Source of the DNA: a virus
Virus record (IMG/VR): IMGVR_UViG_3300045988_170206
Location: 1-64,000 of that record
Strand: one strand, 5' to 3'
Length of the DNA: 64,000 nucleotides
Shown: positions 41,415-64,000 of the stretch, one piece after another
Numbering within the stretch: the first letter of the stretch is position 1
Layout: every line of letters begins with the position of its first letter
Translations under genes and position numbers: made by a program
Notes under the pieces: generated by a model
Told to the model about the DNA's origin: nothing
Databases searched by the model: none
Seen by the model: only the letters and a program-made list of their open reading frames with translations

Positions 41415-41422
41415 GGTGGGGG

Positions 41423-47068: not shown

Positions 47069-47080
47069 AAGAGGCAGGGG

Positions 47081-48727: not shown

Positions 48728-48752
48728 GGAGAAGGTTCCTTTCTTTTGGGGG

Positions 48753-50999: not shown

Positions 51000-51081
51000 A
51001 TCTGCTCCTTCTGGCTGATGTTTCCTGAACAATCCTAGCATTTTCCAGGTGCCCCTCTTCTACTTGTATCGGGGCATGTCG

Positions 51082-51143: not shown

Positions 51144-54100
51144 TCAGTTGTCCGCGTTCTTGCGTCGGCGTGCCAACACGATCAGCGCTGCGGCTGCTGC
51201 GAGGATGCCGCCTGCGGCGCTGGTTGCGAGCACGTGGTGGCGGATCCAGTTGATGACCTGCCCGAAGGTGGAGGCGTTGACATACACGTCGCTGATAGTC
51301 GTCTCGGTGACGTTGCCTGCCATGTCGGTGGCCTTGAGGACAACCGTGTGCGCGCTCGTGGACTGCGGCAGAGTGCCCGTGTAGATCCCATTCTCGTCGG
51401 AGAGGAGCTGCATAGGCTTTCCGTCCACCTGGGCCTCGAGAGTCACGGTGGTCATGTCTCGGGGGGTGACGGTGAAGTCGCGGCTTTCGGAACGGTAGGC
51501 CGCGTCGGTTCGGATGCCGGACACCTGGAGCTCAGGGTTCGTGGAGTCCACGACGAAGGAGTAGCTGAGGCGGCTCACCTGGTCGAGGCCTCCCTCAGTC
51601 TGGGAGACAACCTGGATGAGGTAGGTGCCTTCCTTCTGGAATGCTGCCTTGTCGATGTGGTAGGCGTACACGTAGTCCCCGGCGTCTCCGCCCGTGCGGG
51701 TGGTGGACTGGAGCGCGGGGGCGACGGGGTAGGGTGCGCCGTCGAGGGTGACCTTGATGTCGGTCTTGTCCTCGTTGAGGGCTTCGACGGTGGTCTCCTC
51801 GAGGTCAACGTCCACGGGGGCTTGGAGGTAGCGGCCCTGGTAGTTGGTGCCGGTCACGTCCACGTTGGAGCCGTAGCGGTTGAGGATGAACTCGACGCTG
51901 GCGGTCTGGTCGTTGCCTGCGAGGTCGGTGCCCTTGATGGTGAGGGTGTAGAGGTCGTCGTACTTGGCTTCATCGGGGATCTCGGAGAGGTCGAGGTAGC
52001 CGCCGCTGACTGCGGGCTTGAAGACGTTGCCCTTGCGGCCTACGAGGACGGCGGTGACGCTGCTCGTGTCCGCGTTGGTGTCACTGTAGGTCACGCCGAC
52101 GGTGGGGAGCTGGTAGTAGGCGGTGCCCTTCGTGAGGCCACTGATGCTGATTTCCGGCTTCGTGGTATCGACGATGAACTCGCCTTCGGTGACCTCGTTG
52201 CTGGGGTTGCCTGCCTGGTCGGTGGTGCGGAACCCGAAGGTGTGGACTCCCTCGGGGAATGTCACGGTCGCCGTGTGCGTGGATCCGACGCTGCTCCAAC
52301 CACTGATGCTGCCGGTGCCGGTGAGCTGGTTGAGGGCGGGGTCGAAGTGCTCTTCGACGACGGTGATAGTGGCAGTACGTACTTGGTTGTAGTACTTGCC
52401 GTTGCGCACGTCGGTGGTGTTCCAGGCGACGGAGACGACGGGGGCTACCTTGTCTACGGTGAAGCGGCCCGATGTGAAGGTGTTGGACTGGTGGCCCACC
52501 ATGTCCGCTGCGGACAGGGTGAAGTCGTAGTCCGTGTTGTCGGAGAACGTGATGGTGTTCGTCCAGGTGTCGCCGGAGTGGACCCATGTGCCCCACGTGC
52601 CGACGAGGCCGGTGGTGGTGAGGCTACCGGGGTCGAAGTTGTTGTCGCGGACGGTAACCGTGGCGTGGCGGTCGGTGTTGTAGAAGCCGGACTGGTTGGT
52701 CTGGTCGAACGTGACCGTGAGCTCGGGGGCGGTTGCGTCCACGCTGATGGTGCGGCGCGTTTCGGCCTCGTAGCCAGCATTGTCGGCGACGTGGATCCAC
52801 ACATCCTGAGCGGGGTATTCACCGGCGAGCGTCAGGGGGACGGATACGCCGGTGACGAGGTTCTTGTCGGTGGCGGTCACCTGGACTGCGGGGTTATCGA
52901 CCTGGCCGTCGGGGGAGACGGTTGCAGTACCCAGGGTTGTGTCACCGTATCCCCAGGTGAGGGTACGGATGCCAGAGTGTGTGGCGACGGCGGTGAGAGT
53001 GCCGGATGCGGAGTCCTTGTAGAGGGGCACGCCAGCGCTGTTGGTCGCTGCTGGGGCTCCGAGTTCGACGCTCAGGTCGGTGCTGGTGATCGTCGTGTTC
53101 GAGTCCTCGGACACGAGGCCGTCGGGGCGCTGGCTGTCGCTGATGTTGCCCACCTTGTCGGTGGCGGTAGCGGACACGAAGCCCTTGAAGCCGCTGGGGA
53201 TGTCGAACTCGGCCACGCCGGAGTTGATGGGGGCCGACTCGGTGCGGATGACGGTGCCGGACGGCGTGTAGAACGTCATGAGAGCGTTACCCATGCCCGA
53301 AGATGGGGCGGGGTCGGAGACCTGAGCCTTGATGCGTGTGGCTCCCTGAACGAACAGGCCGTAGCGGTCGGAACCGTTGATGGTCTTGCCCGGCGCGTAG
53401 GACGGGTTCACGACGACGAAGTTCGTGATCGTCGGTGCCTGGTCGTCCACGTAGAACGTGTAGTTGCGGGCACTGACGTTACCTGCGAGGTCAGTCATGG
53501 TGATGGTGACCTGGTAGGAACCATCCTCCGCGCGTGCGGCTTTCGCGTAGTCCACGTCGAGGGTTCCAGTAGTAGCGGCTTCACCGGCCTTGTCGCTGGG
53601 GTTGACGGTGGCGACTTGGGTGCCGTTGACGGTGGCTGTCATGGTGGCGATGCCATTGTCGTCGTGGGCGGTGAAGCTGTTGATCGCCCCGCTGGTTGAT
53701 GAGAACCATGTCCCATCCGTGGCAGTGATGTCGGTGGTCATCGTGGGGGCCTGAGTGTCCACGGCTGCGTGCTTGGATGGCCAGCCGAGTGCGGTTGCGA
53801 CGTGGAGTGTCTGGGAGCGGCCCAGCGGGTCGGTGACGGTGACGGTGGGGTCGTTGACGCTGCCGGTGATGGTGGCAACGCCGTCGGGGGAGACGGTCAT
53901 GCCACTGCTGGGGTCGTTGTAGGTCTGCGCGAGGCCACCGCCGCCCTGTGGGGTGAGCTGCACCTGGATGGGGGTGCGGGAGAACACGCCGTAGGGGGTG
54001 ACGTTCATGTCGCCGGGGTTGCGGACAGTGGCGTTGATGGTGGCCTGGCTGGTGGATGTGGAGATCGTGCCGGTCCAGGAGGTGCGGTGGAGGCCGCGGT

Positions 54101-55535
54101 CTGCGCCGTAGAAGTCGATCTGGTGGCGCGTGCCGTCGGTGAACTCGGACGCGGGGATCGTGAAGGTGTACTTGTTGTCGGCTTCGCGGGTGGGGGCGAT
54201 GGGGCGACCGTCGAAGATGAGGCTCATGCCGCGCGGGGAGAGGGCCTGGTCGTCGCTGAATGTGAACGTCAGGTCTTCTGTGGGGGCGGAGGTGAGCCAG
54301 TACTGGCCGTCGCCGAGGGTCTTGGCGTTGGTGATCGCGTCGGGGACGGTGAGGGTGGGGATGGTGGAGTCCACGGCTACCACGTCGGTGTCGCCGCCGG
54401 TGAAGGCGCTGAGACCGACCTCGTTGGTGAGGCCTGCTTCGTCCATGGTCTGTACCTTGTAGGTGCCTGCTTCGGTGATCGTGAATGTGAAGTTGCCGCC
54501 CTGGCGCTTGAGGGTGGTGACAACTTCGCCGTCCTTGACGAGCTCCACGGAGTACACGCCCGATGGGCTGTCGGTGGCGGTGCCGCTGATGGTGACGTTG
54601 CCGGAGGTGGCGTAGTCGCCGTATGCGTTGACCTGGCCTCCGGTTGCGCGGAGGTTGGAGAACTGCGGGCCTTCGTCGTCGTAGGGGACGTTGATGGACT
54701 GGCTGGCGGTGCGGCCAAACTCGTCGGTGATGCGCAGTGTGGCCTTGCTGGGCTTGCCAGTCAGGTTGATGGTGGCGGTGGTGCCGCTGACGCTCACCGA
54801 GTAGCCCTCATCGGTCGTTGCGGACACGATCTGCGTGTCGGAGCTGATCGTTGCCGTGAGGGCGGGGATGGTTGTGTAGAAGCCCCATGCGGGGCCGGTG
54901 GCCGGGTCGAGCATCATGGCTGTGATCGACGGTTCGCCGACGGTGGTGTGTGCGCCGAGCGTGAAGGTCGTGTTGTCCCACGTGACGGTGGGGGTACCGG
55001 ACGCGGGGACGCGACTGGTGCCGACAGTGTAGGAGCCGTCCGCGAGCGCGAGCGCGCCGGAGTCCGTGGGGATGACTCCGGTCATGGTGATGGGTGTTGC
55101 TCCGGTGTTGGTGGCGAGGATGCCCGCAGCGTACACGCCCTTGTCGGTGTGGACGATGTAGACGATGCGTGTGGGGGCTGTGATGTCGGTGGGGAGCTGG
55201 TTCACGCCCGCTGTCCCCTGGCCTGCTGCGGTGAGCGCGCCGGAAGCGTCGTAGCGGCGCATTTCGACGCTGGTGATCGTTGCGCCGGATTGTGGGGCGA
55301 TGGTGGCGGTGCCCCGCCACTTGCGAACCTGCGAGTAGTTGCCGAGGTCGAAGTCAACGGACGCTGTAGGGGCGGGCGCTGCGGTGACGGCTGCGGGTGC
55401 GACGGTGGCGGCGGGCTGGGTGGTGCCGAAAGCGTTGGTGGCGAGCGCTGCGGGTGCGACGGTGGTGGTGGCTGTGGCGAATGCCAGGAGGGCAGCGATG
55501 CGCACTGTCGTCTTGGTCGTCTTCCGGGGAGTCAT
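51144..55535 (-). CDS. Giant surface protein (1463 aa) of tandem bacterial Ig-like domains with C-terminal TM anchor
   Basis: GAAAGG RBS and signal peptide ...APAALATNAFG. At least seven domain-boundary motifs V-D-x-x-x-P-x-(L/I/V)-(T/S/Q) (VDSTIPTLTV, VDTQAPTMTT, VDDQAPTITN, VDATAPELTV, VDKVAPVVSV, VDTTKPEISI, VDSTNPELQV). The C-terminus LATSAAGGILAAAAALIVLARRRKNADN has no canonical LPxTG. Confidence 0.8.
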   Translation of the reverse strand: MTPRKTTKTTVRIAALLAFATATTTVAPAALATNAFGTTQPAATVAPAAVTAAPAPTASVDFDLGNYSQVRKWRGTATIAPQSGATITSVEMRRYDASGALTAAGQGTAGVNQLPTDITAPTRIVYIVHTDKGVYAAGILATNTGATPITMTGVIPTDSGALALADGSYTVGTSRVPASGTPTVTWDNTTFTLGAHTTVGEPSITAMMLDPATGPAWGFYTTIPALTATISSDTQIVSATTDEGYSVSVSGTTATINLTGKPSKATLRITDEFGRTASQSINVPYDDEGPQFSNLRATGGQVNAYGDYATSGNVTISGTATDSPSGVYSVELVKDGEVVTTLKRQGGNFTFTITEAGTYKVQTMDEAGLTNEVGLSAFTGGDTDVVAVDSTIPTLTVPDAITNAKTLGDGQYWLTSAPTEDLTFTFSDDQALSPRGMSLIFDGRPIAPTREADNKYTFTIPASEFTDGTRHQIDFYGADRGLHRTSWTGTISTSTSQATINATVRNPGDMNVTPYGVFSRTPIQVQLTPQGGGGLAQTYNDPSSGMTVSPDGVATITGSVNDPTVTVTDPLGRSQTLHVATALGWPSKHAAVDTQAPTMTTDITATDGTWFSSTSGAINSFTAHDDNGIATMTATVNGTQVATVNPSDKAGEAATTGTLDVDYAKAARAEDGSYQVTITMTDLAGNVSARNYTFYVDDQAPTITNFVVVNPSYAPGKTINGSDRYGLFVQGATRIKAQVSDPAPSSGMGNALMTFYTPSGTVIRTESAPINSGVAEFDIPSGFKGFVSATATDKVGNISDSQRPDGLVSEDSNTTITSTDLSVELGAPAATNSAGVPLYKDSASGTLTAVATHSGIRTLTWGYGDTTLGTATVSPDGQVDNPAVQVTATDKNLVTGVSVPLTLAGEYPAQDVWIHVADNAGYEAETRRTISVDATAPELTVTFDQTNQSGFYNTDRHATVTVRDNNFDPGSLTTTGLVGTWGTWVHSGDTWTNTITFSDNTDYDFTLSAADMVGHQSNTFTSGRFTVDKVAPVVSVAWNTTDVRNGKYYNQVRTATITVVEEHFDPALNQLTGTGSISGWSSVGSTHTATVTFPEGVHTFGFRTTDQAGNPSNEVTEGEFIVDTTKPEISISGLTKGTAYYQLPTVGVTYSDTNADTSSVTAVLVGRKGNVFKPAVSGGYLDLSEIPDEAKYDDLYTLTIKGTDLAGNDQTASVEFILNRYGSNVDVTGTNYQGRYLQAPVDVDLEETTVEALNEDKTDIKVTLDGAPYPVAPALQSTTRTGGDAGDYVYAYHIDKAAFQKEGTYLIQVVSQTEGGLDQVSRLSYSFVVDSTNPELQVSGIRTDAAYRSESRDFTVTPRDMTTVTLEAQVDGKPMQLLSDENGIYTGTLPQSTSAHTVVLKATDMAGNVTETTISDVYVNASTFGQVINWIRHHVLATSAAGGILAAAAALIVLARRRKNADN

Positions 55536-55560: not shown

Positions 55561-56211
55561 TTATTGCCAACTATGGGCTTCTGCTACCAAGGTTACGCGA
55601 CTGAGCGGGTCGGTTGGCTGCGCGGATGGTTGTGGCGCAAGGTTTGCGGCAGGAATCTCGGTGTCCTCGAAGAAGGCAGTGTCTGCTTCTTCGGTGGTTT
55701 CCGTGCTTGCGTCTGAGAAGAACGTGGTGTCGTCGTCTTCTCCGACGTTAGCGGAGCGCTCGAGCGGTGCCGGTGCGGGTGGCTGTGTGGTTCGCGTGGG
55801 GGTGTCTGCGACCTGTAGGGGTGCAGGCTGAGCTGGCGCAGGCTTGGGGGCGGCAATGGGCGCAGGGGCGACTGTGGTGGGCTGTGGTGGGGTTGGGGTG
55901 AGGTCGCCGGAGAGCACGCCGCTTGTGTCGTCGGCGAGTGTACCGCTATCGAACGAGTCACTGTTCGTCGCGTCGTTCAGGGGCGAGTGTTCACCGAGAG
56001 ATAGGGCGGACATCTTGCGGTACGCTTCGACGGCTCCGTCGCTACTCAGTGTCGAGGTGAGGGTTTCAACGGTGTCGGTGAACGCCTGTCCCTTGAGTTC
56101 CCTGCGTGCTGCTGGGATGTCCCATTGGAAGAACAGGATGAGAGCGGTGAAGAACAGGATGAGGGCTGCGACTGCGAGGCCGATTGCCGTTGCGGTGAAT
56201 ACGGTCATCAC
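55561..56211 (-). CDS. Bitopic membrane protein with Pro-rich and acidic C-terminal region (216 aa)
   Basis: The start (GTG 56211 or ATG 56208) overlaps the kinase stop (GTGATGA). TM segment FTATAIGLAVAALILFFTALILFF. Confidence 0.6.
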   Translation of the reverse strand: MMTVFTATAIGLAVAALILFFTALILFFQWDIPAARRELKGQAFTDTVETLTSTLSSDGAVEAYRKMSALSLGEHSPLNDATNSDSFDSGTLADDTSGVLSGDLTPTPPQPTTVAPAPIAAPKPAPAQPAPLQVADTPTRTTQPPAPAPLERSANVGEDDDTTFFSDASTETTEEADTAFFEDTEIPAANLAPQPSAQPTDPLSRVTLVAEAHSWQ

Positions 56212-57920
56212 TTGGTGGCTCCTTCGGCTGCGTACACAGCATCGACGAGGGTGCGGGACTGGTCGAGCTTCGTGGAGAGCTGGGCTGACAGTTCAGCCGG
56301 TCTTCCTGGTGTCGGGTTGGGGTGCTGCGTGAGGTAGTCTTTCGCGCGCTCGAGCTGCGCGTCAACGTCGGCTTTGGGCACGCCGTCGGTTCGGAGCCTG
56401 TATGTGTAGTTGTTGATGCAGTCCACGATGTAGTTGAGGAGCTGCAACTGTACGACCTCGCCGGAGTTGTCGGTGTTGAGGCTGGTGAGGTTGTTCCAGT
56501 AGGCCCGGTACATGCCGGTGTCGCTGCTGGTTTGGATCGCGGATGCGATGTCGCGGTTGAACGAGCCCATGTTGTAGAGGGCGCTCGCCTGTTCGACGTT
56601 GTAGTTGCCGCTGATCGCGTCCTTGAACCATGGGGCGGATAGGGCGAGGCCGTCGGCGTTTGCGTCGCTGGTGTAGAAAAACCAGTAGAGTTCACCGATC
56701 TGGTAAGCGAGCTCAGGGTAGCGCGGGTTGTCCTGAATGTCCTTAATGTGTTCGCGGACGAGGGGGATGAAGGCAGCTTCCTCAGCGGAGGTGAACCTGC
56801 CGTCTCCCTGCTTGATGGCGGTAATCGTGTCGAAGTATGAGTCGATGTTGGAGGGGCGCGCGTTGATGACTGGCTCCCACGCTTCGACGGTGCCGGCTTT
56901 TTGGGCAGCGCTGGTTAGTGCTGCGTAGGAGTTCGCGTCGGCGTTGGCCCCGTAGGTGTAAGTGCCCGCTGACGCTATTGACATGACGAGGGCTGCTGCT
57001 GCGAGCGCGCCGACGGTGCGGATGCGCCTGCGGTGCTTGGCTCGGTGACGACTATCGGCGGTCTTGTAGGTGTTGAGCGCAGCGATAACTTCGACCATGG
57101 ACGAGTAGCGGTCATCTGGGCGCAGGGCGACACATTTGGCGATCACGTCGGAGAGGGCGCGGCTAACTTCGGGGTTGGCTGCGTGCGCGTCCACGGGGCC
57201 TGTGGGGATGCCCCTGCGGTCGGACGCGGGAAGGTCGCCGACGAGGAGCTGGTACATCGTCATACCGAGGCTGTAGATGTCGCTTCGGATGTCGAGCGGC
57301 GCGCCCTTGGTGATCTGCTCGGGGGGCGCATATCCCTTGGTGCCGAGGGCGTGGGTGTTGATCTGATTGTCAGGGGTGATGACTTCGGCCAGGCCGTAGT
57401 CCATGAGCACCATGGAACCGTTCTGGTACATGATGTTCTTCGGCTTGATGTCGCGGTGGACGACAGGGCCGGGGTGAATATGTGGCGGGAGGGTGTGGAG
57501 GTACTGGAGGATGGTGGCGACCTGCACCATCTTGGAGACAACGAACTGCTCACTGAACCGGCCTTTGTCGGTGCGCTTGGCCGCATCAGCGAGGTCGTAG
57601 CCGCCGATGTAGTCCATGAGGACGGAGTACTTGCCACCCGGCTTGTCGGTACGATCTCGCACGTCGAGGATGCGAGGAATACCGGGGTGGGTGAGGGGCT
57701 GCATGAGGCGCGTTTCGCGCTTGAGGCTATCAACGGCGATTTTGCCGCGGCCTTTAGGGTCGGGGACGGGAGCTGCAACCTCTTTGAGGACGACGAGCTT
57801 ACCGTTCTTAGCGTCGGAAACTCCGTACACCTGGCTAAAAGTGCCGTTGTGGAGTACGGAGCTGATGACGTAGCGGTCCCCCTTGCCGAAGGTTGAGCCC
57901 TTTTTGCGCAGGTTCGTCAT
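56208..57920 (-). CDS. Hanks-type Ser/Thr protein kinase, transmembrane, with non-PASTA extracellular domain
   Basis: ATG at 57920 in an ATGA overlap with the PP2C stop. G-loop region NGTFSQVYG, Lys in LVVLKEV, catalytic loop VVHRDIKPKN, DYG (DFG variant) and GTKGYAPPE. TM segment TVGALAAAALVMSIASAG, then ~190 aa of helical-looking exported sequence. Confidence 0.85.
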   Translation of the reverse strand: MTNLRKKGSTFGKGDRYVISSVLHNGTFSQVYGVSDAKNGKLVVLKEVAAPVPDPKGRGKIAVDSLKRETRLMQPLTHPGIPRILDVRDRTDKPGGKYSVLMDYIGGYDLADAAKRTDKGRFSEQFVVSKMVQVATILQYLHTLPPHIHPGPVVHRDIKPKNIMYQNGSMVLMDYGLAEVITPDNQINTHALGTKGYAPPEQITKGAPLDIRSDIYSLGMTMYQLLVGDLPASDRRGIPTGPVDAHAANPEVSRALSDVIAKCVALRPDDRYSSMVEVIAALNTYKTADSRHRAKHRRRIRTVGALAAAALVMSIASAGTYTYGANADANSYAALTSAAQKAGTVEAWEPVINARPSNIDSYFDTITAIKQGDGRFTSAEEAAFIPLVREHIKDIQDNPRYPELAYQIGELYWFFYTSDANADGLALSAPWFKDAISGNYNVEQASALYNMGSFNRDIASAIQTSSDTGMYRAYWNNLTSLNTDNSGEVVQLQLLNYIVDCINNYTYRLRTDGVPKADVDAQLERAKDYLTQHPNPTPGRPAELSAQLSTKLDQSRTLVDAVYAAEGATK

Positions 57921-58618
57921 GCTAGTCCTTCCGTTGAGGCGAGTAAAGCGGTGATGTTGTCCTGTTCTCCCGCTGTTTGTGCGCGCGTAGCGAGGTCGTT
58001 GAGGCCTGCTTCTGTGAGAGCGTCGAGCTTGTTGCCGACGGCCTCGTAAGCGTGCCAAAACCCGTCTGAGCATAGGAGGAATGTGTCGCCACTCTGGTAG
58101 GTGCCGGTGTAGATGTCAGGGGTGTGACCGTCGGCTTTGGGCTTTCCGAGTGCGCGGGTGATGCGGCTGGCGTAGGTGCGGGCGATGTCGGGGGTGATGG
58201 TGACTCCGCGGCGCTTGAAGGCGTTGAGGGCTGAGTGGTCCTCGGTGAGCTGTGTGCCCTCGAGGGTGCCTGCTGGGATCTTGTAGGCGCGGGAGTCGCC
58301 GATTTGGAGGATCCAGTACTGGCCGTCGTAGAGGCGTAGGAGGGTGAGAGTTGTACCTCCTCCCGTGTCGGTGACCTTCTGGTGGGCGGTGGTGACGGCT
58401 TCGATGAGGGTGTCGTCAGTGATGTCTCCGGCCTTGATTGCGTCCATGTAGGTGCGGGCGGCGCTTTGGGAGGCTTGTGCGCCGTTGGCGACTCCGCCCA
58501 TGCCGTCGGCGATGAGTGCGAGGATGCCGGTCTTGCCGTCGGCGGTGAAGGTGGCCCAGGCGTAGGTGTCCTGGTTTTCTTTTCGTTGGTTGCGGTGGGT
58601 GATCGTGTGGACGCTCAT
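57917..58618 (-). CDS. PP2C-family Ser/Thr phosphatase
   Basis: RKENQDTY, LIADGMGG, LQIGDSRAY and LLCSDGFWH. ATGA overlap with the FHA gene stop. Confidence 0.85.
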   Translation of the reverse strand: MSVHTITHRNQRKENQDTYAWATFTADGKTGILALIADGMGGVANGAQASQSAARTYMDAIKAGDITDDTLIEAVTTAHQKVTDTGGGTTLTLLRLYDGQYWILQIGDSRAYKIPAGTLEGTQLTEDHSALNAFKRRGVTITPDIARTYASRITRALGKPKADGHTPDIYTGTYQSGDTFLLCSDGFWHAYEAVGNKLDALTEAGLNDLATRAQTAGEQDNITALLASTEGLA

Positions 58619-59733
58619 GCCTGCTCCTTGACGACGTTGAAGGCGACGTGGCCGAGGCGTAGGAGTGCGCCGTCGGGGACGATGGTGGGGGTGTGTGGTT
58701 GGAGGCGGTGTGCGCCGATGTGGGTACCGTTCTTGGAGCCCAGGTCGGTGACGATGACTTGGCCGTCCTGCTCGTAGATCTGGGCGTGGCTGCGGCTGAG
58801 GCTGCTGTCGCGGCTGACGCTGATCTCGCTGCGTGTGGAGGAGCGCCCGATGATGACGGGGCGGGTGAGGATCGGCCAGCTTTCCTCTGTGGTGAGGCTG
58901 TGGAGGCTGTAGGTCGTGGCCGTGGGTTCGTCGTCGTCGAAGAAGCCGGTCATGTCGTCTTCGTTGGTTGCGGCGGATGCTACCGGCTTGGGTACGACAG
59001 GCGCAGGGGCGACGGGCGCGGGGGCAGGTGCGGGGCGCACCGGGGTTTCGACAACTGGAGTTGGCGCGGGAGCCGGTGCTAGAGGTGGCGTAACCGGCGC
59101 GGGGGACTGAACGATGGGGGCCGGTGGGGCTGGAGGTTCAGGGAGCGTCGGCGCAGGGAGAGCTGCTTGTGGCTGTGGCGGCTCTGGGGCTACTACCGGC
59201 GGGGCTGGCGGCTGCGGGGTGGACGCACGGTCGAACAGGGACTTGCGTGCGGGTTGTGGGGTCATCATGGCCTCGAGCTCGGCCACCGCTGACTGTTCGA
59301 CGGCTGGGATGCTCTTGTCCTTGACTGATGAGCGTAGGGCTGCTGCGAGAGCGTCGGGAGTGCCGATGGTCGCGAGAGGACCGTTGGCGGGGGCAACGAT
59401 CTGGCTGAGCGTTACGGGCGACAGGTTGGTGGATACGAGGCGAGGTCCGCCGTTTGCGAGCGCCGCCCAGTGTGGTGCGACCTTGGGCATGATGAAGGTC
59501 CACAGGTTGAAGGTGGGGTTGTCCTGCGGCGGTGCGACGGCGACCCAGAAGTCGCCTTGGCCGTTGGTGACGATGCCGGTTGCTGTGCGGTAGTCGCCTC
59601 CTTCACGGATGAAAGCTCGCCACACGTTGATGATGCCGTCGAGGGAGGCTTTCCCGTTGAGGGTTTCGACGGGGGCGAGTCCGAGCTGCTGTGCGTGGGC
59701 TGCGGGGACGGCTGTCATTGGGGTGATGGTCAT
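58615..59733 (-). CDS. FHA-domain protein (N-terminal unknown domain, Pro-rich linker, C-terminal FHA)
   Basis: C-terminus VIIGRSSTRSEISVSRDSSLSRSHAQIYEQDGQVIVTDLGSKNGTHI (G-R ... S-x-x-H ... N-G). ATG at 59733, 8 nt after the upstream stop. The Pro/Ser-rich 73-aa extension in the ORF track was rejected. Confidence 0.8.
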   Translation of the reverse strand: MTITPMTAVPAAHAQQLGLAPVETLNGKASLDGIINVWRAFIREGGDYRTATGIVTNGQGDFWVAVAPPQDNPTFNLWTFIMPKVAPHWAALANGGPRLVSTNLSPVTLSQIVAPANGPLATIGTPDALAAALRSSVKDKSIPAVEQSAVAELEAMMTPQPARKSLFDRASTPQPPAPPVVAPEPPQPQAALPAPTLPEPPAPPAPIVQSPAPVTPPLAPAPAPTPVVETPVRPAPAPAPVAPAPVVPKPVASAATNEDDMTGFFDDDEPTATTYSLHSLTTEESWPILTRPVIIGRSSTRSEISVSRDSSLSRSHAQIYEQDGQVIVTDLGSKNGTHIGAHRLQPHTPTIVPDGALLRLGHVAFNVVKEQA

Positions 59734-59740
59734 TGTCTGC

Positions 59741-61222
59741 TCACTTTCCGCTGGAGGGGTTTCCGGCGAGGACGCGGAACCAGATCGGATTGGTGGATCG
59801 GTCGTAGGAGGCTCCCCAGATGAGGTAGAGCTCGGAGAGTCGCGTAGAGGAGGTCCAGGACTCGAGAGTCCCAGATTCACCTGGCGCGAGGGTAACGCTG
59901 TTCGTGAGGCCGTACACGGTGCCGGTCCTGGTGTAGGGGTTGCGTGTGGCATCGACGAGGGTGTCGTCGGGGGTGAGTGTGATGGTCTCGGTGCCGAGGT
60001 TGCGGACCTTGAACGTGTAGAAGGCGTACTGCACTTCGCTCGCTTCGACGAAGCCTCGGTTTTGTGCAGACTTTTGGCTCATGGCGCGGAATGCGTCGGG
60101 GCCGGTGAGGAACGCACTGAGGGTAACTTCGATGGGGGTGTCGGTACCGTCGGTGGTTTTGACGACGACGGGCGTGTTCAGACCTGCGGGAGCGTTGAAG
60201 GTGCCATCTCCAACTCGGGGGAGCGCGCTCGTATCAGGCAGGGATCCGTCTTGTCCTGCACTGGTGAGGGCGTGTGCGCCGATCCAGTTGGGCTCGGTGT
60301 AGTAGTTATCCGCGTATTTGCGGCTGGTTTTGGCTTCTTCGGTGTCTTCGTCGCGCGTGGTGGCGGTAGTATGCTCGGGATCGAGAGCGTCTACGGCGAG
60401 TTCGCTGAATGTGTCTTGGAGCTTGTGGAAGCTGTCGGACGCGAACAGGGTGTCATCCATATACACGTCCTCAGCGCTGGAGAGTCGGCAGGAGGAGCCG
60501 AGGCCGGTGCCGGTGCAGTCCATGACGGGAGGGCGGCTGACGGTGGTCGTGGGGAGGTTGGCGGCGTTGGCTGCAATGTAGCTGGCGAACGCATCCGTGA
60601 CTTTACGGCTGAACTCCACGTCGCTGATCGACGTGAGCTTCGCTTTGGCGAGCGCGTCCTTCACGCCGGTCTTGTCGAGGGTGACTGCCCCGTAGTCTAC
60701 GAGCTGGAAGTCCACGTTCTCACCGTTGTTGAGCGTCGAGGGGGCGGTGGTGGGTTTCCAGGTGAAGGGGTTGCGGTGGGGCTGGCCTGTCCAAGTGAGC
60801 TGCCCAGTTTCAGGAAGCTGGTAGGTGACGGTGGCGAGGATGGCTCGCACGGCGTTGGTGCGTGCTTCGTTACCGTTGAGGTAGTCGTACTCCCGCGCCA
60901 CCCAGGACTGCTCGATGACCGAGTTGAGTCCGTCGGTGTCGAAGTCGTGGAGGGCCGTCATGTAGGGCACGAACGTGGAGGTGCCTTTAGCGGCCTCGGG
61001 GAGGCTCTTCGCCGGCGGGACAATGACCCCGAAGTAGGTGCCGATCAGTGCGACGGGCACTAGGGCGATGAGGGAGCGCTTGAGGAGCTTCTTCTTTCCG
61101 CGCTTCTTCTTGGCTGACGTTGCAGGTGTAGCGGGTGACCCCCACGAGTCCCAGGCCTCGCCTTGCGCGGGCACGTTGTTCTGCATGGGGGTGGTGGGGA
61201 TGTTGGTGTCCCAAGAAGCCAT
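59741..61222 (-). CDS. Bitopic membrane protein with ~410-aa exported domain (493 aa)
   Basis: Cytoplasmic Lys-rich tail KKKRGKKKLLKR and TM segment SLIALVPVALIGTYFGVIV. No motif recognised. Confidence 0.65.
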   Translation of the reverse strand: MASWDTNIPTTPMQNNVPAQGEAWDSWGSPATPATSAKKKRGKKKLLKRSLIALVPVALIGTYFGVIVPPAKSLPEAAKGTSTFVPYMTALHDFDTDGLNSVIEQSWVAREYDYLNGNEARTNAVRAILATVTYQLPETGQLTWTGQPHRNPFTWKPTTAPSTLNNGENVDFQLVDYGAVTLDKTGVKDALAKAKLTSISDVEFSRKVTDAFASYIAANAANLPTTTVSRPPVMDCTGTGLGSSCRLSSAEDVYMDDTLFASDSFHKLQDTFSELAVDALDPEHTTATTRDEDTEEAKTSRKYADNYYTEPNWIGAHALTSAGQDGSLPDTSALPRVGDGTFNAPAGLNTPVVVKTTDGTDTPIEVTLSAFLTGPDAFRAMSQKSAQNRGFVEASEVQYAFYTFKVRNLGTETITLTPDDTLVDATRNPYTRTGTVYGLTNSVTLAPGESGTLESWTSSTRLSELYLIWGASYDRSTNPIWFRVLAGNPSSGK

Positions 61223-61231
61223 GTCTTTTCC

Positions 61232-61858
61232 TTACCCGAATATGTTGCTGAAGAAGGTATCTGCGTTCGCCGTGTCTTCCGGCTCTGGTTCCGGCTCTGG
61301 CTCGTCTGCCCTGTGGGGCGATGGAGTGTCGTCGATGCGGGGGGCGAAGTCGTCCTCGTTGTCACCCGTGGGGAACACCCAAGGGCTCACAGCGTTAGAA
61401 CCAGTTGTTTCCACCTGAACCTGTTGGGGTTCTTGGGGTTTTTGCTGGGTTCTGAGCAGTTCTCGGACGAGGGATTCAAGCTCGTCCATACGGTCGTCCT
61501 TCTTGGGCTGTGCCTGTGGGGCCTGAACGACGACCTGCGGTTGTACGGGCGCAACCTGCTCGAAGTAGCTTATCCCCTGCTGTGTGCGCATGGTGAGTGA
61601 GTCAAGCATGAACTGGAGGCGGTCGTTCTCCCGCTGCGCTTCATCCAGGGCTGTTTGGAGCTGAGCGCGCTCGAAGTCTTCCTCGTAGCCGAGCATGACG
61701 TTGACGATGCGTCGCACTTCCTCATTGTCGCGGTAAGCGGTCAGTAGGGTGATGACGAGGGGGGATGCCTGCCGTTGCTGAGCGAACGGGCGGATCACGT
61801 CGTCGTAGATGTCCTGCGGGAGGCCCTTGACGACCAGTGTGTGTTTACTCGATGACAT
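61232..61858 (-). CDS. Possible ribbon-helix-helix DNA-binding protein with coiled coil (ParR/ParG-like adaptor candidate)
   Basis: N-terminus KHTLVVKGLPQDIYDDVIRPF looks like an RHH beta-strand + helix. Central coiled coil (FERAQLQTALDEAQRENDRLQFMLDSL) and an acidic tail. The ATG overlaps the upstream gene by 14 nt. Confidence 0.45.
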   Translation of the reverse strand: MSSSKHTLVVKGLPQDIYDDVIRPFAQQRQASPLVITLLTAYRDNEEVRRIVNVMLGYEEDFERAQLQTALDEAQRENDRLQFMLDSLTMRTQQGISYFEQVAPVQPQVVVQAPQAQPKKDDRMDELESLVRELLRTQQKPQEPQQVQVETTGSNAVSPWVFPTGDNEDDFAPRIDDTPSPHRADEPEPEPEPEDTANADTFFSNIFG

Positions 61859-63206
61859 CGGTCAGCCTATCTCCCTCGCGGACAACGTTCGTAGCAACTG
61901 ATCTGGCGATGAACTGGATCAACTGCTGCGCCTGCCCAGCTGTTGAGGGTTTGTAGATGAGGGCTCGAGGCTGAGGGTTCAGGCCTCCGAGGTTGATGAG
62001 GGTCGCTCGTAGCGACTGGATGATTCCGTCGATGATGACGGTGGGGAGCTTGTGGGCTGCGAACGCCATGTAGAGGACGCGCGCGACCATGCTGTTGGCG
62101 GGTGGGCCGACGAGGATGATCTGCTTGCCGTCGTGGGCGACCTGTGCGAGGCGAGCTGCCCAGTCCACGAGCAGATAGGAGAGGTCGTTCATGTAGGAGC
62201 GCGCTCCCATGGTGATGAAGCTGACCTGGTTGACACTGGTGTCCGTGTAGGGGACCGGGCCGGTGCCTTTGGTGAGCCATGTGCGCCCATCGGTCACATC
62301 GTTGGTGCCGAAGCGGTAGTCGATGAGGCTGTCCACGTTCAGGTCGATGATGCAGACGGGACCGTTGTAGGCGAGTTCTGCGGCGTACTTCTGGATGAGC
62401 TTGTACGTCGTTTGGACGGCTCCCCCGGTGCCGGGGAAGAGCACGTGTAGGCTCTTGACGACCGTCGGTGAGAGTGTGGCGACCGTCGGCAGGCTCAGCG
62501 TCAGGATGGAGTCTGCGTTGGAGAATGCGTCAAGGCGCGCGAACGGGGATCGCTCAAAAGCTGCGAGCCGTTTGCGGAGTTCCACGTCACTGCCGCCGTG
62601 CATGACCTGCTTTTCGAGTTCGGCCTTTTCTCGGGCGAGGCGCGTCGCGTCGGCTTCGAGCGCGGCAATGCGGTCACTCTCTGACGCTCGAGTGTTCAGG
62701 AGAGCTTCCTGTTCCGCGAGCTTCTGGTTCGCTGCGTCGAGGTCGGCTTGCAGTCGCGCCACGTCGGCATTGGGGGACGTGACGGCAGGCGCGACAGTTG
62801 AGGTGGCCAGTTGGGGAGTCACCGTGTTAGCTCCTTGAGCGGCGGCAAACGTGGCGAGCACCTGCATGAAGGCTGTGGGATCTAGCGGCTGTTCTCCCGT
62901 GGGAGCGTCGAGCTTCGCTCCTCGAGCATTCAGAGCTTCAGCGAGGCGCGCGTCAGTTGAGTAGGGGATGTACTTGTCGGTGCTCACGATGCTGGGTGCG
63001 ATGCGACCACTATCCGCGTACCCGTCAGGGACGATGAAGGCCACCACGTCATTGCGCGTGGCGCTCCTGTGCGACTGGAGCTTGAGGCTGGTGGCTGACA
63101 CTTCCGACAGTTCGACAACATCCTCAGCCCCGTAAATCTGCGCGAAGCCCTCGCGTGCGAGTTTCACCGCGGAGGCGGGGAGGCCGTAGTAGTAGGCCTT
63201 GAACAT
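61845..63206 (-). CDS. Hypothetical protein (453 aa): receiver-like N-domain, coiled coil, degenerate ParA/MinD-like C-domain (TadZ/CpaE-like, tentative)
   Basis: AGGAAGGAG RBS. Coiled coil ADVARLQADLDAANQKLAEQEALL...RLAREKAELEKQ. LHVLFPGTGGAVQTTYKLIQKYAAELAYNGPVCIIDLN sits where ParA has KGGxGKT...vlviDlD, but the P-loop Lys/Thr are absent. Confidence 0.6.
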   Translation of the reverse strand: MFKAYYYGLPASAVKLAREGFAQIYGAEDVVELSEVSATSLKLQSHRSATRNDVVAFIVPDGYADSGRIAPSIVSTDKYIPYSTDARLAEALNARGAKLDAPTGEQPLDPTAFMQVLATFAAAQGANTVTPQLATSTVAPAVTSPNADVARLQADLDAANQKLAEQEALLNTRASESDRIAALEADATRLAREKAELEKQVMHGGSDVELRKRLAAFERSPFARLDAFSNADSILTLSLPTVATLSPTVVKSLHVLFPGTGGAVQTTYKLIQKYAAELAYNGPVCIIDLNVDSLIDYRFGTNDVTDGRTWLTKGTGPVPYTDTSVNQVSFITMGARSYMNDLSYLLVDWAARLAQVAHDGKQIILVGPPANSMVARVLYMAFAAHKLPTVIIDGIIQSLRATLINLGGLNPQPRALIYKPSTAGQAQQLIQFIARSVATNVVREGDRLTDVIE

Positions 63207-63232
63207 GCTGGGCTCCTTCCTATGTGGTGGGG

Positions 63233-63296
63233 CCTCCGCGCCCCTACCTGTTCGACTGGGTGAGCAGGGGGCCAGTGAACCGTGGGGGCGCGGAGG
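63233..63296 (-). terminator. Long-loop hairpin between the actin-like gene and the next gene
   Basis: 12-bp stem CCTCCGCGCCCC (63233-63244) / GGGGCGCGGAGG (63285-63296) with a 40-nt loop. Function uncertain (attenuator or protein-binding site). Confidence 0.3.
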
Positions 63297-63307
63297 GGCT
63301 TGTGGGA

Positions 63308-64000
63308 TTACTTCTTCGCGTTCTTGTCGGCGAATCGCGCGAAGTTGATGGCACCTTCAATGTTGAGGGTGCGCAGGTTGACGCCCTCCTTGATGGGGAG
63401 GAGTTCGATGTCGGGGGCGAAGGAGCGGACCTGACGTACAACCGACTCAGCGATGGGTTCCATCTCTTCTGCCCTGTCGAGAGAGGGGTCTGTCTGTTCC
63501 GTCTTGATCGCGCCGCCGCCTATGACGAGGAGGTAGGCGAACTCATCGGGCGCGAAGCGGTTGGCTTCGAAGGTGTTTCGCAGGTTGGCCGTGATAGTGC
63601 CTGCAACCTCGTTGCGGGCGGCGTTGACCTGGCGGGACACGTCCTTGCGCTTCACGCCTGAACGGATGGTGCCGGTGAGGACCGCTTCTGTGGCGGCTTC
63701 ACGGGAGAGTGCGCGACCGTGTTCCTGGTGCACGTACTTGGCGACCAGGGAGGCAATGGTGTTGCCGCCAACGGGGTAGGAAGCGGACGCGGACGTAATG
63801 GGGTTGAGGTTCTTGATGAACGTCACGTCGGCAGTGCCGGCCCCGAGGTCGAGGACAATGATCGGCTCGTTTACACAGTCTGCATAGTCGGCGACTGTGC
63901 CCATCGCAGGAGTGAAGACGGTGGCACTGAAGCCTGCCAGACCCTCCGCGAGGACGGACACGTCGCCCACCTTGATCGGGATGCTGACACGCTCAGGAGC
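63308..64000 (-). CDS. Actin-like ATPase (ParM/StbA/Alp-type), N-terminus beyond window edge
   Basis: Phosphate-2 motif IIVLDLGAGTADVTFI and adenosine motif YLLVIGGGA. The frame stays open upstream of the ORF-track GTG (..APERVSIPIKVGDVSV) to nt 64000. Confidence 0.7.
   Translation of the reverse strand, partial: APERVSIPIKVGDVSVLAEGLAGFSATVFTPAMGTVADYADCVNEPIIVLDLGAGTADVTFIKNLNPITSASASYPVGGNTIASLVAKYVHQEHGRALSREAATEAVLTGTIRSGVKRKDVSRQVNAARNEVAGTITANLRNTFEANRFAPDEFAYLLVIGGGAIKTEQTDPSLDRAEEMEPIAESVVRQVRSFAPDIELLPIKEGVNLRTLNIEGAINFARFADKNAKK

Follow-up and report, generated by a model that had tools for sequence, protein, structure and literature searches.

Within the 64,000-nucleotide stretch of DNA analyzed here (the window), five adjacent genes encoding an FHA protein, a PP2C phosphatase, a bitopic Ser/Thr kinase, a small transmembrane (TM) protein, and a giant Ig-like protein constitute one functional unit, here referred to as the cassette. 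It is well supported that the cassette is a conserved backbone module of a ∼140-kb extrachromosomal element and that the host of this element is an uncultured high-GC Gram-positive organism, probably an actinobacterium (GC, 62%). Comparison of sequences gives good support to two further relationships: the element is a distant relative of the Bacillus thuringiensis conjugative plasmid pXO16, and the cassette proteins are homologous to the T7SSe/T7SSd components TseJ-TseF-TsxD-TsxH-TsxI. Overall, we estimate a probability of about one-half that the cassette is a membrane-anchored phospho-threonine (pThr) switch that would license the envelope machinery of the element. The genes concerned are as follows.

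59741..63970, minus strand: upstream ParM-type block, whole; abuts the cassette here
63308-63970, minus strand: actin-like protein of the ParM-type block, cut by the window end (MreB-like_C, 7e-14)
61845-63206, minus strand: 453-aa protein of the ParM-type block
61232-61858, minus strand: 208-aa protein of the ParM-type block
59741-61222, minus strand: 493-aa bitopic exported protein of the ParM-type block
58615..59733, minus strand: FHA protein, TseJ-like (372 aa; Pfam FHA)
57917..58618, minus strand: PP2C/PPM phosphatase, TseF-like (233 aa; predicted cytoplasmic and active)
56208..57920, minus strand: bitopic Hanks Ser/Thr kinase, TsxD-like (570 aa; Pkinase)
55561..56211, minus strand: small single-pass membrane protein, TsxH-like (216 aa; HMM)
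51144..55535, minus strand: giant Ig-like protein (1463 aa; Big_13, Big_3_3, Big_3_2; termini from sequence)
46024..51041, minus strand: accessory adhesin/pilus insert, whole (Pfam; absent from relative L003)
48753-51041, minus strand: DUF7507 LPXTG protein of the insert (Pfam)
47081-48727, minus strand: SpaA-type pilin of the insert (Pfam)
46024-46911, minus strand: sortase of the insert (Pfam)
40569..46129, minus strand: six conserved genes joining the cassette to the transfer locus (order same in L003)
21414..40569, minus strand: pXO16 "tip"-type transfer locus, whole (nine genes match pXO16)
39805-40569, minus strand: YdjM-like hydrolase of the tip-type locus
Within 21414..40569, minus strand: two paralogous proteins of the tip-type locus, ∼260 to 320 aa each
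33085-37971, minus strand: 1628-aa protein of the tip-type locus (pXO16 homologue, E 6e-140)
32129-33088, minus strand: NlpC/P60 hydrolase of the tip-type locus
26169-28481, minus strand: VirB4-like DUF87 ATPase of the tip-type locus (pXO16 homologue, 35%, E 1e-119)
22403-24898, minus strand: FtsK/SpoIIIE ATPase of the tip-type locus
21414-21698, minus strand: SpoVG of the tip-type locus (annotation)

Every gene named in a preliminary description of this DNA was recovered on the minus strand with its coordinates; the FHA, PP2C, and kinase genes have the corresponding Pfam domains, and the downstream Ig-like protein, pilin, sortase, and T4SS genes are confirmed, the last being corrected to the unusual pXO16 tip type, with DUF87/VirB4-like and FtsK-like ATPases. 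The overlapped chain it described is borne out by 4-nt overlaps at three junctions (FHA/PP2C, PP2C/kinase, and kinase/216-aa gene). The 1463-aa gene starts 25 nt beyond the small gene, and no terminator-like sites were predicted on the minus strand from 46 to 64 kb of the window. An FHA-PP2C-kinase triad had been proposed as the unit joined to the T4SS and pilus genes; we find instead a unit of five genes, in which the small TM protein and the Ig-like giant are the invariant partners. The pilin, sortase, and LPXTG genes count as accessory, being missing from a 53%-identity relative (L003), where homologues of window positions 40.5 to 46.1 kb, the linking genes with no significant Pfam match, directly follow the Ig-like gene in the same order. 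The insert is a functional analogue of the probable agr region of pXO16 (263.7 to 289.5 kb).

The cassette gene order was repeated in 129 independent loci, far beyond chance. Partners occurred in fixed order in 86 loci (small TM protein, 77, at position +1; PP2C, 74; Ig-like giant, 60; FHA, 56). All 43 giant-element loci from IMG/VR carry the cassette. Homologues of the Ig-like giant were present in 58 of 80 genome loci and in almost every IMG/VR locus; four short IMG/VR loci end before the gene. Cassette loci of Bacillota contain EssC-like, YukD, WXG100, and DUF6382-FHA proteins, and the cassette there usually adjoins the EssC, YukD, and WXG100 genes; these loci agree with a published account in the T7SSe parts list, the Neobacillus host, and the lipase toxins (PMC11217815). 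The T7SSd/e components TseJ, TseF, TsxD, TsxH, and TsxI were predicted by sequence analysis alone (Garrett 2024, PMC11217815). They share with the window cassette five protein types, their topologies, and their gene order: an active bitopic kinase with a helical ectodomain, a PPM phosphatase, an FHA protein, a small protein that has one TM helix and whose cytoplasmic tail is unstructured, and a giant Ig-like protein in which a signal peptide is paired with a C-terminal TM helix. In addition, HMMs or BLAST profiles derived from loci holding EssC, YukD, and WXG100 recover the window proteins. The cassette had been thought to have no described equivalent; its counterpart is this set of predicted components. 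In contrast to T7SSd/e loci, the window is without EssC/TsxC, WXG100/TsxA, YukD/TsxB, and TseK, and its cassette neighbors tip T4SS genes on a giant element of the conjugative type. Despite the high-GC host, the composition of the cassette, PP2C and FHA proteins included, is of the Bacillota type (T7SSe); its FHA-protein N-domain is not DUF6382, and its kinases fall in a separate clade.

Three blocks of the window, the tip transfer locus, the cassette, and the ParM block, are colinear with pXO16. Nine tip-locus genes match 329.9 to 349.2 kb plus 0 to 3.2 kb of pXO16 in the same order, and in both elements the annotation places SpoVG after the FtsK-like gene. Of the ParM-block proteins, the actin-like one has its pXO16 counterpart in ParM/StbA at 243 kb (3e-20) and the 493-aa one in a 691-aa protein at 246 to 248 kb (4e-25). 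The ParM block adjoins the cassette in the window, with the same gene order in L004 and L006, but is a separate module in pXO16; the 493-aa gene, described earlier as preceding the chain, does end 7 nt before the FHA start but belongs to this block. Homologues in pXO16 were found for ∼19 of the 50 window proteins tested, including four cassette proteins, and because the cassette is among them, it belongs to a small core kept across phylum-level divergence. The kinase aligns with its pXO16 counterpart over its full length, ectodomain included (29.8%, E 5e-76), the PP2C proteins are 31% identical (E 7e-23), and the Ig-like protein aligns over 1222 aa, at 26.6% identity, with a 2402-aa Ig-like protein (E 2e-118); for the small TM protein, the match is by HMM only.

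Plasmid pXO16, from B. thuringiensis sv. israelensis, is a ∼350-kb, aggregation-mediated conjugative plasmid whose tip locus is needed for conjugation (PMC9673590); the available pXO16 literature makes no mention of the cassette. Both elements have nearly all genes in one orientation, mostly unannotated proteins, and no recognizable relaxase (PMC9673590, PMC6199540). They differ in host phylum and size (∼140 kb for the window element), protein identities are only 20 to 35%, and the three blocks occupy ∼42 kb here versus lying 90 to 145 kb apart in pXO16.

The triad was said to be carried by the mobile element itself, and it is present in pXO16 and in giant IMG/VR contigs. It is also kept in homologous elements: 17 giant IMG/VR contigs carry the kinase with tip-type VirB4, namely, all 14 contigs with a window-like kinase and three more distant ones. 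No tip-type VirB4 was detected with three seed sets in 26 kinase-bearing contigs of a GC-38% clade, and no kinase was seen in three large VirB4-positive contigs; both scans are seed-pattern dependent. "Hard-wired into an operon" applies to the window's clade only; the cassette lies 58 to 145 kb from VirB4 in pXO16 and other relatives. Since it is not adjacent in pXO16 and several relatives, linkage of the cassette to the tip locus is at the level of the element only.

Judged by their sequences, the kinase, PP2C, and FHA proteins all look catalytically competent. The kinase (Pkinase, 1.4e-36) comprises a kinase domain (57099-57866), a TM helix (56952-57014), and an all-helical, TPR-like ectodomain (56211-56951). 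The position of the TM helix at aa 303 to 323 makes this ectodomain ∼247 aa long rather than the ∼190 aa first given; Pfam confirmed that the kinase has no PASTA domain. Its catalytic residues are invariant in 13 family members (K46, E69, D157, K159, N162, D174-x-G176, and APE). An AF2 model of the ectodomain (pLDDT, 86; pTM, 0.80) has ten helices and no significant fold match in the PDB, including EssB, YukC, and TraF. Kinases of giant elements form their own clade, with GC from 32 to 63%. The PP2C (PP2C_2, 1.1e-12; family HMM, 3.5e-43) keeps the metal-binding aspartates D17, D38-G, D185-G, and D220-N. In the 372-aa FHA protein, which matches an HMM of Bacillota TseJ-like proteins (1.6e-19), the FHA domain (1.2e-14; aa 293 to 361) keeps the pThr-binding set G-R...S-R-x-H...N. 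Its N-domain, common to L159 and L186-188, gave a low-confidence AF2 model (pLDDT, 37); its identification as DUF6382 was rejected (hhalign probability, 0.1%).

The small protein, which matches an HMM of Bacillota +1 neighbors (7e-8), has an N-terminal TM helix (56125-56202); its cytoplasmic tail is acidic and rich in Ser/Thr/Pro and contains the motif D-T-x-F-F-x-D twice (55717-55728 and 55669-55680). Across the family, T-x-[VILMF]-[LF] is present in 83 of 83 tails and enriched 12-fold (454 observed versus 37.2 ± 5.8 expected). FHA-protein linkers contain 106 copies of T-x-hydrophobic-L/F versus 23 expected, the last copy being ∼14 aa before the FHA domain; the motif is invariant in this hypervariable linker, the length of which differs among P0274-P0325. 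Most control regions showed no enrichment; the PP2C proteins have a twofold excess of the bare motif, which is probably a structural GTT[LV] element. The occurrence of this motif both in the small-protein tails and before the FHA domain is a new observation. Many FHA domains prefer a hydrophobic residue at pT+3, which the T-x-x-L/F motif fits, and the acidic repeats are probable pThr docking sites, with their phosphorylation predicted. The 1463-aa Ig-like protein is a tail-anchored surface protein and has no LPXTG motif.

The window kinase has the cytoplasmic kinase fold, single TM helix, and extracellular helical domain of EssB/YukC (T7SSb) and TraF (pIP501 T4SS). The T7SSb pseudokinase contacts FHA domains of EssC, and Gram-positive conjugation cannot proceed without TraF (PMC9600267, PMC13037476), so a bitopic pseudokinase was already known in such a T4SS when an equivalent for Gram-positive conjugation was said to be undescribed; the TraF authors point out that TsxD kinases have a TraF-like arrangement (PMC13037476). 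The window kinase differs in keeping every catalytic residue and having a dedicated phosphatase. No sequence similarity to EssB/YukC or TraF was detected, and the ectodomain shows no fold similarity to them; the hub analogy is one of topology. A resemblance to the T6SS proteins PpkA/PppA/Fha1 (TssL-Fha in Agrobacterium) is functional only: there, a membrane kinase, PP2C, and FHA protein gate assembly of an envelope-spanning secretion machine, with a membrane component as the pThr-dependent docking site, but the system is Gram-negative, PpkA has a periplasmic vWA domain, and the window contains no T6SS genes.

In the switch that we propose, the membrane-anchored kinase would sense, through its TPR-like ectodomain, what state the envelope-spanning Ig-like stalk is in, for example, whether it contacts a partner cell or wall; the stalk gene lies two genes downstream. 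Once activated, it would phosphorylate threonines of the acidic T-x-hydrophobic-L/F repeats in the cytoplasmic tail of the small protein and in the FHA protein's own linker. Docking of the FHA domain on the pT-x-x-L/F sites would recruit or release the N-terminal output domain of the FHA protein at the membrane, and PP2C would reset the switch. The switch would most likely act by licensing or assembling the tip-type DNA-transfer channel, its contact structure, or both, in parallel with the proposed control of EssC by the cassette in T7SSd/e and with the hub role of EssB and TraF. That the output on giant elements may be the element's own envelope machinery is the least certain part. Experimental precedents exist for a path from an Ig-like filament through a kinase/phosphatase pair to pThr in a disordered FHA-protein linker (PMC13622651) and a Gram-positive T4SS supplies one for a bitopic hub with a kinase fold (PMC13037476). 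The earlier idea of a phosphorylation checkpoint on the element is partly supported: the element carries the triad with its active-site residues; its tie to the T4SS holds at the element level only.

A possible, though less favored, reading is that the cassette is an autonomous surface-contact or threat sensor riding varied backgrounds, like Esr of Schaalia odontolytica, with an output that is transcriptional or unrelated to DNA transfer (donor-donor exclusion, sensing of competitors or epibionts, or regulation of adhesin expression). Linkage is invariant only inside the cassette, which adjoins T7SS genes, T4SS genes, or neither; among the 57 chromosomal loci whose upstream sequence reaches 9 kb or more, 27 had a T7SS marker, leaving about half with none in reach. 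The FHA N-domains differ by clade (DUF6382 versus a short domain), as interchangeable outputs would. The Esr pathway, which was shown by experiment, works by the same logic, with an Ig-like surface filament, a Ser/Thr kinase and phosphatase, and an FHA protein phosphorylated on threonine in a disordered linker, the output being a secretion system or transcription (preprint PMC13622651). This likeness is by description, with no homology claimed: Esr is chromosomal, and its hallmarks (MoxR, vWA, beta-propeller tip, and transglutaminase) were not found in the window. Against such autonomy, the cassette is among the ∼19 genes common, together with transfer and partition genes, to elements of two phyla, it occurs at every T7SSe locus of Garrett et al. 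(PMC11217815), and Pfam shows no DNA-binding domain in the window FHA protein.

We consider it unlikely that the cassette is the membrane and regulatory half of a genuine, protein-exporting T7SS whose EssC and WXG100 would come from another part of the element or from the host chromosome. Every earlier described occurrence of the components is in T7SSd/e loci, the Agathobacter cassette adjoins WXG100, EsxB, and a TNT toxin, and T7SS genes are present on the chromosomes of such hosts as B. thuringiensis. However, EssC, YukD, and WXG100 are absent from the 64-kb window and from the whole ∼349 kb of pXO16, and T7SS markers are missing within 10 kb in all 43 giant-element loci. An IMG/VR scan for T7SSd/e-type EssC matched four unrelated contigs and no kinase-bearing contig, complete 135- to 144-kb copies of the element included. 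Giant-element kinases are also in a separate clade from T7SS-linked ones, and the B. cereus group chromosomal system, T7SSc (found in the B. anthracis group [PMC11217815]), has its own, different kinase.

Far less probable is an anti-phage or abortive-infection cargo kinase like Stk2 or PD-T4-6, a role that the preliminary description had also entertained. The kinase scores against the PADLOC models PD-T4-6, mad6, and MkoA (E 3e-45 to 1e-28) and the PP2C weakly against PDC-M21C, but the kinase matches span only the generic kinase domain (aa 14 to 300; ∼100 aa for the Stk2 model), and the FHA, small, Ig-like, and flanking proteins match no PADLOC defense family. The membrane topology, conserved ectodomain, and fixed surface-stalk partnership are foreign to such systems, and the cassette is backbone rather than variable cargo. 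A displaced actinobacterial cell-division/wall-growth cluster (PknA/B-PstP-FhaA/B), with which the triad shares three domain types and probably an actinobacterial host, is refuted, and the triad is not orthologous to it: there are no PASTA domain and no RodA/PbpA neighbors, the ectodomain differs, PASTA kinases match the kinase domain only (∼30% identity, ∼50% coverage), and the closest relatives over the full length come from giant elements and Bacillota T7SSe loci.

Carried on a relative of pXO16 and without a T7SS motor, the cassette has a role that is directly testable.

The window carries on its minus strand a chain of genes that joins an FHA protein, a PP2C phosphatase and a bitopic Ser/Thr kinase to a small transmembrane (TM) protein and a giant Ig-like protein. 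The minus-strand ORFs, their Pfam domains and three junctions made of 4-nt start/stop overlaps agree with the chain and the coordinates given in a preliminary description of this DNA.

Genes of the chain, from its upstream end
59741-61222, minus strand: 493-aa exported protein, at the upstream end of the chain
58615-59733, minus strand: FHA protein (Pfam FHA, 1.2e-14)
57917-58618, minus strand: PP2C (Pfam PP2C_2, 1.1e-12)
56208-57920, minus strand: kinase (Pfam Pkinase, 1.4e-36)
55561-56211, minus strand: 216-aa protein, the small TM protein of the cassette
51144-55535, minus strand: 1463-aa Ig-like protein, the last gene of the chain

No minus-strand terminator-like site was predicted across 46-64 kb of the window, and a scan for sigma-70 promoters, a consensus that may not suit a high-GC host, gave no match. 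An actin-like protein is encoded 5′ of the cassette chain, and 3′ of it lie genes for a DUF7507 LPXTG protein, a SpaA-type pilin, a sortase, an NlpC/P60 hydrolase, a DUF87/VirB4-like ATPase and an FtsK-like ATPase. All catalytic residues of the kinase are invariant, and the metal-binding aspartates of the PP2C and the phosphothreonine-binding residues of the FHA protein are conserved; from their sequences, all three proteins look competent. The kinase has its TM helix at aa 303-323, which leaves an ectodomain of ~247 aa rather than the ~190 aa claimed earlier.

The SpaA-type pilin (47081-48727) occurs in 548-aa and roughly 748-aa forms within one 90%-identity cluster, both on contigs of the same size class, which suggests a domain insertion/deletion polymorphism in the pilus shaft. 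At the other end of the window, positions 1-8000 are its sole plus-strand region and encode a choline-binding-repeat protein with a weak metallo-beta-lactamase N terminus (15-1553) and a GH16 glycosyl hydrolase (3296-5149); GC falls to 55% at 6-8 kb, the point of the switch to the long minus-strand gene train.

Relatives at 39-53% kinase identity share one gene order, namely actin-like protein, two unknown proteins, exported protein, FHA protein, PP2C, kinase, small protein and Ig-like giant. Scanning species-representative genomes with an alignment of the kinase ectodomain yielded 135 confirmed loci, nearly all in Bacillota with a few in Coriobacteriia, and all of them at most 35% identical to the window. 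Neighbour clustering placed the PP2C at position -1 to the kinase in 74 of 86 loci, the small TM protein (~200 aa) at +1 in 77/86, the Ig-like giant at +2 or +3 in 60/86 and the FHA protein at -2 in 56/86; for other window proteins, no homologue was found among the 80 genome loci searched. The triad has two constant partners, the small TM protein and the Ig-like stalk.

On the 5′ side of the cassette in Bacillota, genes for WXG100 proteins, a multi-domain EssC-like ATPase, YukD and lipase-type toxins recur, and DUF6382 is part of the FHA protein at these loci. Of the 57 loci with at least 9 kb of upstream sequence, 27 have one or more type VII secretion (T7SS) markers within reach. A parts list for T7SSe, and for T7SSd in Actinomycetota, was defined bioinformatically by Garrett et al. 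in 2024 (PMC11217815), in which the kinase TsxD has a helical ectodomain, TseF is a PPM phosphatase, TseJ joins DUF6382 to FHA, and the small protein TsxH combines a single TM helix with a cytoplasmic region that is unstructured. The window kinase matches TseD, an active Ser/Thr kinase of the membrane whose extracellular domain is helical, and is homologous over its full length to kinases from EssC/WXG100-bearing loci. HMMs built from the neighbour clusters match the window PP2C (3.5e-43), the counterpart of TseF, the FHA protein (1.6e-19) and the 216-aa protein at +1 (7e-8), which resembles TseH in its TM helix, acidic tail and family motif; the 1463-aa protein matches TseI, an Ig-like giant that carries a signal peptide and, at its C terminus, a TM helix (best E 7e-84). 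A C-terminal FHA domain is shared with TseJ, but DUF6382 is rejected for the ~90-aa N-domain of the window protein (Pfam; hhalign probability 0.1%), whereas pXO16 and the kinase-bearing locus L162 have it. T7SSd, which consists of TsdA, C, D, H and I, has no separate phosphatase or FHA protein, whereas the window has both; TsdA and TsdC are absent from the window by HMM search, and the window kinase clusters in the tree with low-GC giant elements, apart from the Coriobacteriia loci L054, L070 and L074. The triad therefore has a described equivalent, contrary to the preliminary description, as part of a five-gene cassette already recorded for T7SSd/e. That work did not tie these components to plasmids or conjugation and called the plasmid carriage of non-T7SSa variants unclear (PMC11217815).

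The T7SS motor does not accompany the cassette here. No window ORF of at least 50 aa matched the EssC HMM, and WXG100, YukD and EssC HMMs run against six-frame ORFs of the window and all 349 kb of pXO16 gave no true match (the sole score was a 23-bit generic match to the pXO16 FtsK protein), so the TseA/TseA2 WXG100 proteins and the YukD-like TseB have no counterpart in either. The one FtsK-like protein of the window has a single ATPase domain, and three small window proteins searched against Pfam gave no WXG100 or YukD match. In IMG/VR, a broader scan for the kinase recovered about 43 family members of full length, on contigs that measure 100-278 kb and have a GC content of 32-63%; the cassette is present in 43/43 loci, with the Ig-like gene found wherever downstream sequence suffices, and T7SS markers occur within 10 kb in 0/43. 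A T7SSd/e-type EssC alignment searched against IMG/VR matched four unrelated contigs and no kinase-bearing contig, full-length element copies included. What is new is that giant elements of the pXO16 type, in two phyla, have the cassette as a module of their backbone, without T7SS motor or substrate genes.

Kinship to pXO16, the 350-kb conjugative plasmid of Bacillus thuringiensis sv. israelensis, emerged at the protein level. A near-identity DNA search with the 5.6-kb region found no match among plasmids; the best plasmid match for both the kinase (96% coverage) and the VirB4-like ATPase is pXO16, and the kinase match, given its extent, includes the ectodomain. Comparison of the whole plasmid (349 kb) with every window protein revealed three colinear blocks.

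Colinear blocks of pXO16 and the window
tip transfer locus: pXO16 329.9-349.2 kb plus 0-3.2 kb, window 22.4-40.6 kb; nine genes in the same order
signalling block: pXO16 127.9-152.0 kb, window 51.1-59.7 kb; FHA protein, PP2C, kinase and Ig-like giant
ParM block: pXO16 242.5-248.5 kb, window actin-like protein and 493-aa exported protein

The tip-type set in the window includes the VirB4-like ATPase (35% identity to its pXO16 counterpart, E 1e-119), the FtsK-like ATPase and the NlpC/P60 cell-wall hydrolase, and the small TM protein has a counterpart in the pXO16 signalling block that was matched by HMM. We are highly confident that the cassette is a T7SSd/e-type module residing on a pXO16-type element.

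Around the transfer locus, an unexpected conserved neighbour in both elements is a SpoVG homologue 3′ of the FtsK-like ATPase with one gene between (window 21414-21698, pXO16 4545-4889). Small conserved genes past the locus (window 17354-17956, 19557-20204 and 20776-21417) encode a DUF4326 protein, a DNA-ligase-type zinc finger protein with a homologue at pXO16 82.0-82.6 kb (E 2e-22) and a metallophosphoesterase. Within the cassette, the pXO16 locus (L010, 131-142 kb) and loci L160-L185 of a GC-38% clade have 4-11 kb between FHA/PP2C and kinase, filled in pXO16 by tandem small paralogous genes and an HD-domain protein; this junction is the exact point where the cassette tolerates insertion.

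pXO16 mobilises "non-mobilizable" DNA, and its conjugation mechanism is largely unexplained. Conjugation needs the tip locus, no relaxase or oriT is known, and pXO16 alone among these elements has had its self-transfer shown by experiment (PMC9673590); neither a kinase nor an FHA protein is mentioned in reviews on this plasmid. The probable aggregation (agr) region, as placed from annotation, is pXO16 263.7-289.5 kb, where a sortase and two giant proteins of surface-anchored or isopeptide type are encoded. This region is distinct from the Ig-like protein beside the kinase, so that TsxI-like protein is unlikely to be the aggregation factor of the literature.

The window kinase belongs to a cluster of 741 members at 90% identity, on metagenomic contigs of 135-147 kb; IMG/VR copies of the element are 135-144 kb, and none of the species-representative genomes has a close relative. 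The element and dozens of relatives (100-278 kb) are filed as viral in IMG/VR, e.g., IMGVR_UViG_3300045988_174140 (144,147 bp). The backbone is plasmid-like (ParM, tip T4SS), and PHROGs identified none of ten large window proteins as structural proteins of a phage; these entries are probably misfiled giant plasmids. The giant extrachromosomal "Inocle" elements of oral Streptococcus (245-368 kb, GC 24-32%) carry VirB4 and VirD4, and their report mentions no kinase or FHA protein (PMC12340149); as a lead, they might belong to the same superfamily as the kinase-bearing giant contigs.

How closely the triad is bound to transfer genes can be judged by intersecting the contig names of kinase and VirB4 scans of IMG/VR, both seed-dependent. 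Tip-type VirB4 is present on 14/14 contigs bearing a window-like kinase, and the two genes also occur together, at 58-120 kb from each other, on three contigs that are more distant. Near-identical contigs with VirB4 only all end on the kinase side, three large VirB4-positive contigs had no kinase match in the seed-dependent scan, and for the 26 kinase-bearing contigs of the GC-38% clade neither tip-type VirB4 nor the 1628-aa protein was detected with three seed sets, again seed-dependent. A neighbour-joining tree of 129 kinases, without bootstrap support, suggests that nearly all giant-element kinases form one clade spanning low- and high-GC hosts, with the window's kinase clade nested among its low-GC members; chromosomal T7SS-linked kinases appear to form another clade, near whose base the pXO16 kinase falls. 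The preliminary description had proposed an element-borne phosphorylation checkpoint hard-wired into a conjugation/pilus operon. Carriage by the element and conservation in related elements hold, given the pXO16 blocks and the co-occurrence with VirB4; the link to the T4SS stands at the level of the element and not of an operon, the pilus genes are accessory, and the checkpoint would be built from a cassette already described.

Two other arrangements deserve mention. L183 and L184 (IMG/VR 3300045988_180675 and 3300045988_178166; GC 36%) encode a 574-aa FHA protein that begins with a signal sequence; a long stretch that looks extracellular and then a TM helix precede its motif and FHA domain. 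The kinases of both loci cluster with a T7SS-linked Agathobacter locus, apart from other giant elements. In Agathobacter rectalis NZ_CP143948.1 (L007), the cassette is rearranged (Ig-like, PP2C, kinase, hypothetical protein, FHA) and adjoins WXG100, EsxB and a TNT toxin. Although labelled plasmid, the record (252 kb) has housekeeping-type genes (methionyl aminopeptidase, GatB/YqeY) and may be a chromosomal fragment or secondary replicon.

Among other known systems, T6SS assembly is gated by PpkA, PppA and Fha. In Schaalia, a kinase/phosphatase pair switched on by an Ig-like filament at the cell surface targets an FHA protein, phosphorylating a threonine of its disordered linker, and the output is transcription or Esx secretion (preprint PMC13622651). 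Bitopic kinase-like hubs also invite comparison: the T7SSb pseudokinase EssB contacts the FHA domains of EssC (PMC9600267, PMC13037476), and the bitopic pseudokinase TraF is essential for pIP501 conjugation, its authors noting the same arrangement in TsxD kinases (PMC13037476). The catalytic site of EssB, YukC and TraF is degenerate, whereas the catalytic residues of the window kinase are intact. Its ectodomain was modelled as ten helices (pLDDT 86, pTM 0.80) with weak TPR-like Foldseek matches (E at least 0.2, TM at most 0.42); a sequence search of the PDB was empty and Foldseek found no EssB-type extracellular fold there, so homology to EssB, YukC or TraF is rejected and bitopic topology is the sole shared feature. 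Orthology with the PknB/PstP/FhaA-B division cluster is rejected because the kinase has no PASTA repeats by Pfam and the triad has no RodA or PbpA neighbours. A role in abortive infection or defence finds no support, since matches to the anti-phage kinase systems Stk2, PD-T4-6, mad and Mko are limited to the generic kinase domain and their system-specific proteins are unmatched.

The small TM protein offers a candidate substrate. Its N-terminal TM helix is followed by basic residues, which places the acidic, Ser/Thr-rich tail in the cytoplasm, and these tails repeat a motif of consensus acidic-[G/E/A]-T-[E/T]-V-L-x-acidic, which we scored as T-x-[VILMF]-[LF].

Motif copies observed and expected from shuffled sequences
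Small-protein tails: observed 454, expected 37.2 +/- 5.8; at least one copy in 83/83, median 4, maximum 18
FHA-protein linkers: observed 106, expected 22.9 +/- 4.8; present in 55/62
PP2C: observed 99, expected 45.1
Kinase domain: observed 29, expected 37.6
Kinase ectodomain: observed 17, expected 31.2
FHA-protein N-domain: observed 28, expected 30.5
FHA domain: observed 13, expected 12.1

In the FHA-protein linkers the final copy lies ~14 residues ahead of the FHA domain; in the window, the small protein has the versions DTTFFSD and DTAFFED, and the FHA protein has DMTGFFDDD. Linker length is highly variable among close relatives while the motif is invariant. FHA domains commonly prefer a hydrophobic residue at pT+3, from which we infer that the motif threonines are kinase substrates and FHA ligands. 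The repeated T-x-hydrophobic-L/F motif thus provides new, specific predicted phosphosites, and we lean towards a phosphothreonine docking switch acting on it.

The Pro-rich linker (window 58858-59433) varies by PAPxP-type indels across P0274-P0325, close relatives of the window FHA protein of 326-378 aa from otherwise near-identical element copies, in which the N-domain, the FHA domain and the EDDMTGFFDDDE motif are invariant. All relatives recovered by a homologue search with the FHA protein were 70% or more identical to it; the N-domain is common to the nearest low-GC giant elements, and its AF2 model, from a shallow alignment, has no usable fold (pLDDT 37).

That the cassette acts on the transfer or contact machinery of the element is a tentative proposal, somewhat less favoured than its alternatives taken together. 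Joining these parts, we give a probability of roughly 0.3 to a reading of a hybrid DNA-transfer machine, in which the cassette is the half that spans the envelope and senses contact. pXO16-type giant elements would have united a T4SS-like motor set (VirB4-like and FtsK-like ATPases) with a T7SSd/e-type membrane module; phosphorylation of the threonines of the T-x-hydrophobic-L repeats in the small protein would license channel assembly, and would do so only once the Ig-like stalk has engaged a recipient. Such a machine could help explain the relaxase-less, very fast and promiscuous transfer of pXO16, which is genetically tractable, with mating and aggregation assays established, so the hypothesis is testable at once. 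The motif supplies concrete predicted phosphosites and FHA ligands for both T7SSd/e and plasmid systems.

The analysis places an active kinase switch in the pXO16 family and shows that this plasmid does not stand alone: human-associated metagenomes commonly hold relatives of 100-280 kb, which span two phyla and are at present filed as viral contigs. The kinase/phosphatase/FHA/small-TM/Ig-like module is now separable from the T7SS motor, and its persistence on many giant elements without EssC or WXG100 genes questions its status as a T7SS-specific core. If the hybrid reading is true, the D, F, H, I and J "core components" of T7SSd/e would be an autonomous, portable gating module; the module itself suggests a portable device for gating or sensing in the envelope machines of Gram-positive bacteria.
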